A stretch of DNA of 64,000 nucleotides from assembly GCA_964016885.1 (NCBI GenBank), contig OZ024742.1:157170001-157234000 (forward strand), given 5' to 3'. Positions 29,015-50,213 of this stretch are shown piece by piece; within the stretch, counting starts at the first letter, position 1, and each line of letters starts with the position of its first letter. Both the position numbers and the translations under genes were made by a program. Below the pieces are notes generated by a model. It had not been told where the DNA came from. It made no database searches and saw only the letters and a list, made by a program, of their open reading frames with translations. Source of the stretch: Eledone cirrhosa. Its lineage: Eukaryota.

Positions 29015-29491
29015 TATTTTTAGTATATGTTGGTTGTTTATCGTCACCTCAGTATGCAGATTGGAGCACTCGACGAAGTACGCAGGTTGGTTTGGTTACT
29101 CCGGAGTAATGTAAAATAAAGTAATTAAGTCAAATATTTAAAATGTGGCTTCGTTTATTAAGGATGTACTGCTATATATATTTCGGTGACAACCATCATT
29201 GGCTGTGACCTCTTCAGGCAGTCCGAATTTGTGTGGTAGAGACAGGTACATATGTTGTTAAAGTGTTTTACTCCGTCAATACTCTGATATGTCCAGCTCC
29301 TGGTTGGGTTGTTATTTCTCTGAGAAACTGGAATCATATGATTTAACAACATGTGTACCTGTCTCTACCACACCAATTCGGGCTGCCTGAAGAGGTCACA
29401 GTCAATGATGGCTGTCACCGAAATATATATAGCAGTACATCCTTAATAAACGAAGCCACATTTTAAATATTTTATTAATTACTTTATTTTA
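29015..29491. mobile_element. Fold-back HHR insert (family F): arms ~29111-29250 and 29341-29491, ~95-bp tail
   Basis: Inverted arms, each with an HHR. Second independent copy at 49684-50213. Confidence 0.9.
29383..29435 (+). ncRNA. Minimal type I HHR (mirror copy at 29169-29221, minus)
   Basis: ctgc-CTGAAGA-ggtcacagtc..ggctgtcacc-GAAA-tatata-TA^gcag. Confidence 0.88.
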
Positions 29492-31049
29492 TATATATAT
29501 ATATATATATATATATATATATATATATATATATATATATATATATATATATATATATGTATATGTATATATCAAACGAAACTGAAAAAAATGAAAATGA
29601 AATGAAACAGTTATATATATATATAGAGAGAGAGATAGAGAGAGAGAGAGAGCGAGAGAGAAAGAGAAAGGGAGAGAGAGGCTGCATGTCTGAATCAAAT
29701 TGACGAAAAACAGTCAAAATATTCAATACATGGTCGGTGAAGCACGTGGGGAGCAAAATTAAATATATTCTTGTCTGATTCAAATTAACCCTGAGTTACT
29801 TTGAAAAGTTTAGCTATATATTTTCTCCAAATATTGGTCAAGCGAATAACAGCAATAACAACAGACGCTAAATCAACAAGAACTACAACAACAGGTACAA
29901 GAGCAGCAACAATAAAAACATGAACAGGAAGATGACACGGTCACCAGTTCTCCACTTTCAGATTCCCATCCACCAATTTCACTGAATACCTTAAGAGGAA
30001 AACCACAGCAACCACGAACTTTGACATCATCACCATCCTCGTTATCATAATTTGCTGTTACTTTTATTAACATTTCTACCACCCCAACCATTAAAAAAGA
30101 TAATGCTTATTTACTGTACAATTGCACCTAAATCCACATATTTATGCTACAGTAAAATGAAAAATATGTCAACGTTTATGACGTAGCATGCTCACAAACT
30201 CCCATTGCACAAACATGAAACCCCAAAATAGGTCGTTATTGACTGCGCCATAGGCTCTACACGTGCACTGACTGGATCTTCACGCATCTACTTGGGATAA
30301 GACGCACAGTAAAATCACTCGTTTTCCAGTGTCTCGACGCACTACCAGATATGGGGCTCCAAGCTAATTCTAACGAACCGGAAAATCACCCTCTTCCGCA
30401 CCAATTATTCTTCATATATTCACGAATGTACAAAAATAAAATCACAACCAGAAGTAGAAAATATAACCTCTTCTAACTGTGCAACCACATGTCTAGTCAG
30501 ATTACTAAAAAATAATACCTCTTTAGCCAAGATAAACCTGGCAAATAAGATATAAATAAGAACATTCTAAGTATCACACAACACCAAGATCTGCTATTAA
30601 CCCAGTGCACGCAACAACCCCCACCCCCATTGCTGTCGCTAACAATCAAGTGCAAAATGAGCGCCCTGAAACAGTCAAAACCAAGCACTACTCCAGCCTC
30701 AATATTTCTAAATAAACAAGTTGTCAGCCCTACCATCAATACACAAAAATGAAAGGTTCATTGAGGATTGGATATAATTGACAAACTTAACAGACCACAT
30801 CACTTTCTAGATTTTAACCGAGATCTATCTAGACAACTTCAAATCGTAAGTCGTAGTGAAGGTGAGAAATTGTGTGGGTAGAAGGGAGGAAGGAACTGAA
30901 ATATATTCAGCAATGGTTATTTTGAATCAGTCACCATGTACATCAATGCCAATGATTTGATAACAGATGGGTTCTATAAGCTACCTTGAACAACAATATT
31001 CTGCTGCAAAGAAGGCCTCAACAGATTAAGTTTATATATCTATATATAT

Positions 31050-34000
31050 ATAAACGTTTGTATATGTATAATAAAGTCAAAACAATGCAGGTATGGACAT
31101 AGAATAAAGAATGCAAATGCAAAAGATATTGTTGACAATTAGTCTTTTACCTTAGATTTATTTAAATGTCCTTAATTTTCGAGATAAAATATCTTCTTCG
31201 GAGGGAAGTAAAGCGGTTAAACCAGTGTTCTAAATAGCTTGCCAAGTCATGCTGACAGGAAATGGTATAGAGTATCTGTTCTATCTCTAATGTCAAAGAG
31301 TTAAGGTTAGGTGGATAAAGAGTAGTCTCCCTTTAAAAAGGTTTTTTTTTTGTTTATTTGTGTACATGCCTGTTTAAGTGTGTGGGAGAATGCATGAAGG
31401 TGTAAGTATGTGAGTGTGTGTGTGTGAGAGTGAGAAGATATGTCTATACGTAAATGTGGGGGATAGATGTTATCTCGTGTTAGAACTGGTCTTTGTTGTG
31501 TGTATGAGTGTGTGTGAGAGAGAATAAGTGCTGGTGTAAGCGTGTGTGCGTGTGTGTGTGTGTGTGCGTTCGTGTGTGTGTGCCTGTGTGTGTGTGGGGT
31601 GTAAATATGGGGCTAGAAGTTCTATCAAGTTATACATTGGGTGTTGAGTTCTAGTCTATTATTGAATGGTGGTTGTGTTTTGTCTATAATTAGTGATTCC
31701 TTAATTCTAAGATTGCCGAGGTTTCTTTCCTTAGTTTCTATCCTAACTGTTATGGTTTTGTCGGTGTTTTTGCATTTAACTAGGTGTTTCTTAAATGAGG
31801 AAGCGTTAGTATTGAGGTGTTCTTTTATTCTTACGTGGAGTGGTCTGGTGGTGCTACCTACGTAGACGTTGCTGCATTTGTCACACTCTAGTCTGTATAC
31901 CACGTAAGCCTGGTGGCATAGGTCTGTGTCGTTGATGGGGCAGTTGGCTAGCCTGCAGCAGTTGTCATGTATGGTGGAGTGTCTTTTGGTTAGCTGTCCG
32001 CGTAAAGAAGGACCTGAGTGGGCCAGTTGGATATCTAGTCCCTCTCGTCTGATAGCTCTGCGGATGGCTGTTGTTGTTTCATCACTGAAGTGTGGGAGCT
32101 TCAGGAAGCAAGTGTTAGTGCTTCGGGTGTGGTGTCCTCTGTTCTTTCTGGCACGGTTTGTGGTGGATGACGTGTATCCATTCACTTTGACTAGTTCCAG
32201 GAAATGTGTTGTGTGTGTGTCTCGGTCTCTAGCGTCGGTGCATTTGTTCCGGATACGTGTAGTTTGTTCCTTATGTATCCGAACTTAGCGCCGGCTGGGA
32301 GGGCCGATCTGAAATGTACGAACAGGTCCCTGCTGGCGGCTTTTTTATAGAAGCAGGTGTGGATGTTGCTTTCCTCTGTTACGCTGAGTTGGAAGTCCAT
32401 TAGGAATAGGGATCCGCGGTCATCGGGGTGTTCCATGCTGAACTTTATACTGGCGTCCATGCTGGAGAATGTTGTGTATATTGTATCTGCCTCCTGACGG
32501 GATGATGTAAGGATGAGTATGTCATCTACATATCGGGTGAATAAGGTATGGGAATGGCAGGTGTTACGGGCTCGTCATTCTAGCTCATTCATATAGGTGA
32601 TGGTCAGCAGGCCCGACAGGCTGGATCCCATGGGTAATCCTGTTGTCTGTCTGTATGTGTGGTGGTGGAAGGTGAAGTACGAGTTGTCCACTGTGAAGGA
32701 CAAAAGCTGGTGTATGTCCGTCGGATGGAGGCCGTAGCAGTGTATGTCCTCTGCGACCACGCAGTCCGTCAATAAATCGACAGCTGGATGAGCGGGGACT
32801 GTAGTGTAGAGGGAGGACAACGTCGAGGCTAAAGGCGTATCTATTTAGTTTAAGTTGTTCTGGCTGGTGTTGGTGTAGTCTACGTATAACTTCGTCAGAG
32901 CTACATGCCCGGGAAAGGTGGAGAGTAGAGGCTTGAGGACCTGGGAGAGGAGCCAGGAAATTTGGTATAGGGGTCCTTCTATGCTAGAGACGATGGGTCT
33001 ATTTGCGTCTTAGTACTATTCTTGTGGGTCTTGATGAGGTGGTAGAAAGTGGGCAGTCTGCTACTTCTAGTGGTGTAGTTGAGCTTAACTTTATTTGGGA
33101 GTTGTCTTCTCTTACAAATATCGAACCAGATGCAGTTGGTCTGTTTTTCGATTTGGGCTGCAGTCATGTCCGGGATCTCTGTATATAATTCATTGTCGCT
33201 TAGGTGTTCAAAAGCTAGGTTGTTGTATGTGGCTTGAGAGATGACGCAAAAATATTACCTTTGTCTATGGTAAATATATAAGTTCCCTATTCCGTAGGTT
33301 CTTCAGGGCGAGTTGTTGTGTCCTGGAGAGGTTTGGGGCTATCTACTTCTGTTTCCGTAAGATGTTAAATACGGAATGTTTTAGCCTCGAGAGTTTTTCT
33401 TCAAGCTAGCGGTTGGCAGGCAGTGGGCAGAGTGGGCGATCCAGTTCGTATATCGGTAATCTGGGTTTGTTAGATTCCGTGGTGTTGTTGCCGAGAGTCG
33501 ATATCCATTTTAGTTGGTAGGCAGCCCGACAGAAATTCGTTTCTATGTCGAGCCATAATTTGTCGTCCAGTCTCTGTTTCAATATGAACTTGGGACCCAG
33601 GCTGAGGAGGTCTAATTCCTCTTGGGAGAGGGATCATGTCAAGTCCGTGACGAGCTGTTTTGCTTCAGGTGTGTTGTTGGTCAGGGCGCCGCTAGGTTCG
33701 ATGTTGGTACCGTCTTGTTCGCCTCTGTTGGTGCTTAGAGTTGGGATGTTGTTATGACGATTAGCCGTGCTGAGTTTGAGAATTTTTTTGCGTTAGGCGT
33801 ATTTTCTCGTAGTCTCGGCGATGGTTGTATGACCTGTCTATAGCGGCGGAGATAACTCTGGACAGAGGTTATGGGGTTTCAGCGAGTTGTGGTACAAGGC
33901 TGGAAATAGTCCGTATGTGTTGTTGTAGCGTGCGGTGTAGGTGTTTTATGAGTATTCTTAGGCAGAATGTTTGTATGTAACTAAGTGATCGTTTGAGGCC

Positions 34001-49246: not shown

Positions 49247-49683
49247 GGATACACTTCTAATAATTTTAATCACGACACATATTTCAATAAGATACAAATC
49301 GATCGTGCGGCCATGATCGATTATCACTGATCTCGTCAGGTGAAAATGAATTGTCTTCAAATCCTTGACATGAGGGAGAACATTTAACGATGTTCACTCA
49401 CTAGAGTTTTGTCACCCATATGAAGTTTAAGCAGCCAAAACACGCCGACCGCTTTCGTCCTCAATTAGGGTCATAAAACTATTAAGTCTCTATCTCTCAA
49501 TAGCTGTAAAAGACGCTGGATGAGTCAAATCTTTAGAATTACAATCGGTCACAGTTAGTGTGAGTGAGTACACACACACTCGCACAAATTGACGCGAGGT
49601 CGAAGAAAAACTTATATATATACCAACATAGTATTCACCGAAAGTTAGTTTACAAAACAACAAATATATATATATATATATAT

Positions 49684-50213
49684 AAATTTTGAGTATATTT
49701 TGGTTGTGTACCAACATTTCACTATGCAGATTGGAGAACTCGACGAAGTGCGCAGGTTGCTTTGGTCACTCCGTAGTAATGTAAAATAAAATAAAATAAA
49801 TAAGTCAAATGTTTAAAAGATGGCTTCGTTTATTACTGCTATATATATTTCGGTGACAGCCATCTTTGGCTGTGACTTCTTCAGGCAGTCCAAATTAGTG
49901 TGGTATAGACAAGTACACATGTTGTTGAGGTGTATAACTTTGTCAATACACCGATATGCCCAGTTCCTGGTTGAGTTGTTGTTTCATTCAGATATGATTC
50001 CAGTTCCTCAATGAAACAACAACCCAACCAGGAACTGGGCATATCAGAGAATTGACAAAGTTATACACCTCAATAAGATGTGTACTCGTCTCTAACACAC
50101 TAATTCGGACTGCCTGAAAAGGTCACAGCCAAAGATGGCTGTCACCGAAATATATATAGCAGTAATAAACGAAGCCAAATTTTAATCATTTGACTGATTT
50201 ATTTTATTTTACT
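49684..50213. mobile_element. Family F fold-back insert, copy 2 (HHRs at 49836-49888 minus and 50109-50163 plus)
   Basis: Arms ~49781-49989 and 50010-50213; same tail as 29015-29110. Confidence 0.9.

Follow-up and report, generated by a model that had tools for sequence, protein, structure and literature searches.

Two hammerhead-bearing fold-back insertions in Eledone cirrhosa and their possible origin from the end repeat of a Penelope-like element

The stretch analysed here (the window) comprises 64,000 nucleotides (nt) of the Eledone cirrhosa genome (GenBank assembly GCA_964016885.1, contig OZ024742.1, positions 157,170,001 to 157,234,000 of the forward strand) and contains two short fold-back insertions with hammerhead ribozyme motifs, designated copy 1 (29015–29491) and copy 2 (49684–50213), to which no other match was found in the window at E ≤ 0.01. 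In each of them one unit is present twice, head to head, with its 3' ends facing outward into (TA)n; these flanks are present on both sides of both copies, and a target duplication is indiscernible there. From 29339 to 29015 the unit measures 325 nt, and it contains a poly(A) signal and T-runs, as in the pseudo-long terminal repeats (pLTRs) of Penelope-like elements. The two insertions are organized as follows.

29001–29017: (TA)n target left of copy 1.
29341–29015, minus strand: tailed arm of copy 1, in the order 5' hairpin, hammerhead, AATAAA, AT-rich stretch and tail.
29015–29111, minus strand: tail of copy 1, about 97 nt, on the tailed arm only.
29287–29339, minus strand: predicted 5'-terminal hairpin of copy 1, the base of which is the shared 5' point (10 of 200 shuffled sequences as good).
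29332–29343: junction of copy 1, a 12-nt palindrome AATCATATGATT with the 8-nt TCATATGA inside.
29342–29491, plus strand: tail-less arm of copy 1, 5'-truncated by about 80 nt.
29490–29558: (TA)n target right of copy 1.
49664–49684: (TA)n target left of copy 2.
49684–49991, minus strand: tailed arm of copy 2, 5'-truncated by 11–15 nt, with a tail of about 103 nt.
49992–50216, plus strand: tail-less arm of copy 2, beginning at the shared 5' point and stopping at 50211–50216.
49992–50044, plus strand: predicted 5'-terminal hairpin of copy 2, a 9-bp perfect stem plus 5 bp (z −2.18; 5 of 200 shuffled sequences as good).
50215–50256: (TA)n target right of copy 2.

The 5'-most sequence ATATGATTCCAGTT is reached by the tailed arm in copy 1 and by the tail-less arm in copy 2, just as a first-pass annotation of this DNA had stated. 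The same annotation had credited both copies with a common tail end and a common tail-less stop; the tail-less stops do agree within 0–5 nt and the tail ends within a few nt inside (TA)n, but to call the ends ‘fixed’ was an overstatement, two of the four arms in the window being themselves 5'-truncated.

Comparison of arm with arm revealed differences at 6 of 149 aligned bases (4%) in copy 1 and at 17 of 205 (8%) in copy 2, as against 13–14% between the copies, and 8 nt present in both arms of copy 1 are absent from both arms of copy 2. Four of the eight public runs listed (X1, X4, X6 and X7, X4 being from another organism) were mapped on 28975–29365, of which the mapping skipped 28975–29030 as repeat. 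The letter common to both arms of copy 1 at 29145 is not found in 975 of 1008 X6 reads, and that at 29198 is not found in 3243 of 4122. Because the arms are closer within than between copies and carry features private to each copy, the two fold-backs were made separately, as the annotation had argued in preferring separate events to one duplicated insert, and each likely stems from one template or one source locus. If both arms of a copy started out identical, the rate given in PMC13282606 yields rough ages of ∼6 and ∼12 million years (Myr) for copy 1 and copy 2, respectively.

All four arms carry stem I (ACUGC/GCAGU), a core, a 10-bp stem II with one mismatch and GAAA, together with a stem III of two pairs that has the palindrome UAUAUA as its loop, and AUA as cut site, at the following positions.

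29168–29222, minus strand: type I hammerhead of the copy 1 tailed arm, intact core CTGAAGA at 29217, predicted cut after 29173.
29382–29436, plus strand: type I hammerhead of the copy 1 tail-less arm, intact core CTGAAGA at 29387, predicted cut after 29431.
49835–49889, minus strand: type I hammerhead of the copy 2 tailed arm, CTGAAGA at 49884, G10.1A.
50109–50163, plus strand: type I hammerhead of the copy 2 tail-less arm, CTGAAAA at 50114 (G8A).

The assignment is based on the motif and the predicted fold without Rfam support, no hammerhead being found among the 73 Rfam matches at E ≤ 1; stems I and II were predicted in three of the four arms and stem II only in the fourth. The C3–G8 pair is essential (PMC11167929) and the G10.1–C11.1 pair highly conserved (PMC4209133). 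The full set of both pairs and the NUH cut site is present in the two arms of copy 1 but in neither arm of copy 2, the hammerheads of which are likely inactive because G8A and G10.1A break conserved core pairs; C11.1 is altered in 2198 of 4050 X6 reads. The four hammerheads announced by the annotation are therefore four motifs with UAUAUA, three with CTGAAGA and one with CTGAAAA, but the core is intact in only two of them. As the predicted cut at 29173 falls in mid-unit, ∼165 nt from either end, the hammerhead would set neither end of the unit, and cutting at it would need a dimer.

Other hammerhead-like motifs (CTGATGA core, GAAA and TATRTA stem III) were seen at 20263 (plus strand), 39771 (minus), 17168 (plus) and 16400 (plus)/16395 (minus). 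Motifs with the CTGATGA core occur in at least two further repeat families, some of them fold-backs, and the copies of such families at 20154–20345, 39668–39918 and 41999–42209 differ in their 5' extents. The 8-nt segment of the copy 1 subfamily forms the 11-nt CAGTACATCCT (29159–29169 and 29435–29445), which is complementary to 20270–20281, where the 5' strand of stem II in the 20263 hammerhead lies; this may be chance.

Penelope-like insertions have been described as having a one-sided tail and an adjoining inverted 5'-truncated copy, with a bias for (TA)n (PMC8557442). Their GIY-YIG endonuclease introduces nicks into both strands of AT-rich DNA, and the reverse transcriptase (RT) starts at two internal sites of the RNA, which in an autonomous element yields the tailed and the tail-less ends (PMC11167929). 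By analogy, the shared tail end and tail-less stop of copies 1 and 2 can be read as the signature of a Penelope-like enzyme and do not argue for a discrete RNA, since reverse transcription from two internal sites would account for them.

As to the 5' end, random truncation at 0.2–0.8% per base would bring the ends of the longer arms of two insertions to within 3 nt with a probability of 0.005–0.019, and the point at which these arms end is marked by the self-complementary TCATATGA and by the base of the predicted 14-bp hairpin. Records matching the family are abundant (3385 contigs in X1, 29 contigs in X4, 7909 reads in X6 and 6570 reads in X7), and the 8-nt indel, found in 509 of 1079 X6 reads, indicates at least two subfamilies. 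Among the 15 joints listed, seven change strand; two of these, ending at 29345, were dropped as artefacts of an inverted reference piece, and of the five usable ones four have one side at 29337–29343, whereas in the fifth neither side falls there. Two X1 contigs, two X6 reads and seven X7 reads show a perfect head-to-head form with CATATG at its centre, and a loose end in X4 matches this form. The depth of X6 is flat from 29325 to 29338 (1265 against a mean of 1222). X6 and X7 are restriction libraries in which the molecules end at AATT, a site lying at the 5' point, so that the mixed sequence they show past it is uninformative; the loose lengths (70 behind 29229 and 34 behind 29341) are compatible with short AATT fragments that had become ligated to random DNA. 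An agreement of 0.42 among the loose ends behind 29341 was considered as proof of unrelated flanks and rejected, since three fixed letters followed by random sequence predict 0.42 as well.

The 5' point is thus a real hotspot of ends, though arms also stop elsewhere. The shared 5' limit proposed in the annotation survives as a pile-up that exceeds chance and recurs in read junctions, but not as an exact boundary, most reads passing 29339. Two causes compete for the pile-up, namely the start of an RNA or joining at the palindrome; by analogy, a preferred 5' stop would also be expected of an ordinary Penelope transcript, which begins within the end repeat (PMC2377424), and of a palindrome at this spot.

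The explanation that we favour, with moderate confidence, is that the ∼330-base unit is the transcription-start-to-tail segment of a Penelope-like pLTR, copied by internal priming. We infer its priming sites, transcription start, joining route and partner clade in the following form. A Penelope-like enzyme would prime at two internal sites on the pLTR copy at the 5' end of the RNA; because only ∼330 bases would then be left to copy, the cDNAs would run off at the first bases of the RNA (near 29339–29344). The two cDNAs, both arms of an insertion coming from one template or source locus, would be joined head to head, often via the self-complementary TCATATGA, and one arm would be trimmed. The template may have been the 5' end of a full-length mRNA or, with about equal probability, a short transcript of a solo unit. 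In Drosophila virilis, the Penelope transcript starts at nt 371, from an internal promoter inside the pLTR (PMC2377424), and with the tail repeat near nt 680 we derive a start-to-tail distance of ∼300 nt for that element.

A near-complete Penelope-like insertion at 31049–37027 provided a comparator within the window. It has a 451-nt pLTR first and consists, on the minus strand, of a pLTR, a broken RT and GIY-YIG frame and a tail-less pLTR, placed head to head with a 5'-truncated copy that carries a 44-nt one-sided tail. The frame is similar along its length to homologues of 850–880 aa, the pLTR ends ∼28 nt into it, and by its motifs we take the element to be Nematis-like; all three pLTRs contain a hammerhead in which the core is changed to CCGAAGA (U4 to C) and stem III is nearly absent. 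Judging from this layout, a start-to-tail segment of a few hundred bases is normal in such elements. The last 33 nt of the copy 2 tail translate like the start of the comparator frame (3 of 1200 control peptides as good) and resemble the N-termini of six homologues (15 of 1200 as good), a faint likeness that would fit a tail ending in the first codons of a partner's frame. The annotation had proposed a search for an autonomous Penelope-like element with the same pLTR; no such partner was found, and no RT and GIY-YIG frame is attached to either copy in the window.

A Penelope-like protein of the window has its closest named homologue in Octopus bimaculoides (59% identity). In O. vulgaris, 190 families of Penelope-like elements account for 6.83% of the assembly (PMC13282606), and the octopus repeat library of that study may already contain the present hammerhead end-repeat family. 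Neither of two family motifs occurs in the supplement of PMC8557442 and one does not occur in that of PMC13282606; the literature searched, of limited coverage, contained nothing on this hammerhead end-repeat family or on fixed 5' ends of Penelope fold-backs. The two motifs gave no match in viral and metagenome contigs. The only prokaryote match, 21 nt exact in a Bacteroidales genome (L001, 1501–1521), showed no flanking likeness and was set aside as chance.

Several observations weigh against the favoured explanation. Of the reads at 29325, ∼1030 of 1265 in X6 and 764 of 948 in X7 still match at 29339–29341 (computed from binned depths), and the family therefore extends at least 2 nt further, to 29341; together with these matches, an A at 29342 in 79 of 100 X6 reads and 304 loose ends behind 29341 that begin with ATT make it likely that it extends through AATT at 29341–29344, at least to AATTC before ATATG, 5 nt past 29339. 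One X4 contig runs on for 103 nt of CpG-rich sequence beginning ATTCGAAC, and one X1 contig has ∼184 nt beyond 29340; either extension could represent flanking DNA or the interior of the element. At the 5' point, three of the four joints could go back to a single event, a palindrome in the reference can attract alignments, and two junction types have neither arm at the 5' point (29104/29191 and 29244/29345), the skip from 29244 to 29345 being probably a further fold-back short of it. At 29251 the arms of copy 1 differ at a common polymorphism (465 of 1071 reads), which slightly favours two templates. The tail, at ∼95–100 nt, exceeds the usual 30–40. The peptide likeness of its last 33 nt is weak and was tested post hoc: copy 1 has GTG for the possible start codon and scores p 0.12 with the comparator, and codon 2 is a CpG site in the reads. 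Lastly, a comparison with 272 Penelope-like proteins yielded no match to the copies (best E 0.069), and between the comparator pLTR and the copies there is no detectable sequence similarity (p 0.06).

Some of these points suit another explanation, which we regard as possible though doubtful: randomly truncated 3' ends of a longer Penelope-like element would anneal or snap back at TCATATGA, a joining hotspot, and later deletions near the centre of the palindrome would give both junctions. Both junctions can indeed be read as a perfect CATATG-centred palindrome with a one-sided deletion, the perfect form exists in the reads, most reads pass the point, and the X4 and X1 contigs continue beyond it. 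Against this stand the position of the 5' point at the base of the predicted hairpin and the failure of the X4 extension to resemble the end of a coding region. Treated as a protein end, that extension came no closer than shuffled sequences to 152 Nematis-like (p 0.43) and 120 Hydra-like (p 0.37) C-termini, and it has no match in the window. A shared upstream extension was not found among the six loose ends listed for X1, a weak negative. A related suggestion, that a partner frame has its stop codon at the 5' point, likewise received no support from the Nematis-like and Hydra-like C-termini.

A somewhat more tentative proposal, which we count within the weight given to the favoured explanation and not beside it, is a separate, stand-alone RNA of ∼330 nt, non-coding and transcribed from an internal promoter of its own, which would have spread over millions of years as a passenger of a Penelope-like element in the manner of a short interspersed nuclear element (SINE). 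The thousands of matching records in at least two subfamilies, the different ages of the copies (∼6 and ∼12 Myr) and the want of a conserved frame, with GTG at the possible start codon of copy 1, are what such an RNA would leave, and non-autonomous Penelope-like families do exist (PMC8557442, PMC9977147). Yet every end can be explained without a separate RNA, and the poly(A) signal and T-runs lie within the unit as they do in pLTRs. No A box and no B box of an RNA polymerase III (Pol III) promoter were found in the three arms scanned, and no tRNA genes. On the sense strand of the X4 extension, of which 30 nt are visible, GTTCGAAT stands just before the 5' point; it resembles a tRNA T-loop or a B box, with one mismatch. 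A frame of 60 codons from the ATG at the 5' point of copy 1 was rejected, a stop falling at codon 7 in both arms of copy 2 and in about half of the X6 reads. Of the SINE-like short transcript dependent on a Penelope-like element, as the annotation had it, the dependence and the non-random 5' stop are retained, but the 3' ends are irrelevant to it and no Pol III boxes were found in the arms scanned.

Two further schemes appear very improbable. A retrozyme without LTRs, in which hammerhead-cut tandem units give linear and circular monomers that are reverse-transcribed, would suit the unit length and palindromic stem III, both of which fit metazoan retrozymes (PMC7229834), and the derivation of metazoan retrozymes from pLTRs (10.64898/2026.07.22.740005), but neither copy is head-to-tail, no unit end lies at the predicted cut, and no tandem (go-back) joint is among the 15 joints listed, where a spacer would hide one. 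Duplication or movement of one ancestral fold-back as a whole, like a miniature inverted-repeat transposable element, with the shared ends inherited, would account for the layout and palindromic centre common to both copies but is largely refuted, as the within-copy closeness of the arms, the copy-specific indels and the rare letters would need arm conversion in each copy, and the one-sided tail makes the ends asymmetric, unlike terminal inverted repeats.

The window is rich in repeats, in (TA)n and in fold-backs, and fold-backs are the rule in it: at least eight more, of unrelated families and most of them by (TA)n, were found at 2705–3803, 16002–16194, 16336–16459, 16613–16821, 16928–17243, 27492–27969, 45961–46035 and 48769–49270. 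A GC-rich, near-perfect palindrome of ∼110 nt occurs twice in (TA)n (2578–2690 and 48962–49052, 82% alike), and the second of these is the centre of the fold-back at 48769–49270. Remnants of RT and C-terminal endonuclease frames, the homologues of which are ∼700 aa long and resemble proteins of the Hydra clade (supplement of PMC8557442), lie at 7759–9292 (minus strand), 18092–18879 (plus), 23569–24020 (plus), 26194–27410 (minus), 39841–40086 (plus) and 43725–44029 (plus). Between 51420 and 64000 are three diverged copies of the long interspersed nuclear element type (72–83% alike), with a reverse transcriptase domain at 62925–63740.

Among the known systems close to copies 1 and 2 are the endonuclease-bearing Penelope-like elements (Penelope/Poseidon, Neptune, Nematis and Hydra; PMC8557442), with which the copies have in common the inverted 5'-truncated copy, the one-sided tail, (TA)n and a hammerhead in the end repeat; the copies differ in having no attached coding sequence, in a tail of ∼95–100 instead of 30–40 nt and in 5' ends that pile up, whereas those of the published elements are described as variable. 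With PAc, a Poseidon element of Anolis (PMC11167929), the model shares two internal priming sites, the nicking and extension of both strands and ends that are not set by hammerhead cleavage, but PAc is an autonomous element with a frame that begins inside the hammerhead, while no partner frame was identified here. The start inside the pLTR ∼300 nt before the tail repeat in D. virilis Penelope (PMC2377424) is on the same scale as the present unit, in which no intron was identified. The motifs agree with the minimal and short-stem-III type I hammerheads of metazoan Penelope-like elements (PMC4209133) in the 5-bp helix I, the long helix II, G10.1–C11.1 and the palindromic helix III, and also in forming opposite-strand pairs 100–700 bp apart. 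Like the non-autonomous elements MRC1 and Chlamys-N4 (PMC8557442, PMC9977147) and like retrozymes (PMC7229834; 10.64898/2026.07.22.740005), the unit is short, non-coding and likely moved by a Penelope-like enzyme; Chlamys elements, however, are without hammerheads and often head-to-tail, and retrozymes are tandem and hammerhead-cut, whereas the present units are dispersed as fold-backs with ends away from the cut.

The pile-up of 5' ends bears on how Penelope-like elements finish integration and why inverted copies remain. Should the palindrome be its cause, it would reveal how the two cDNAs are joined; should it mark a transcription start, it would be a genomic sign that the enzyme primes on the 5' end repeat of its RNA, in line with what was observed in vitro, and would offer a simple birth route for short non-autonomous passengers. 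Either would be a useful mechanistic detail within a known kind of system, since Penelope-like elements that are non-autonomous, fold-backs and hammerheads in end repeats have all been described before. It is conceivable, albeit unlikely, that octopods harbour a self-propagating family of ∼330-nt hammerhead RNAs, running from an internal start to the tail and dispersed as fold-backs, a Penelope-dependent counterpart of SINEs; were this true, the thousands of copies of the family would record both internal priming sites and the first base of the RNA.

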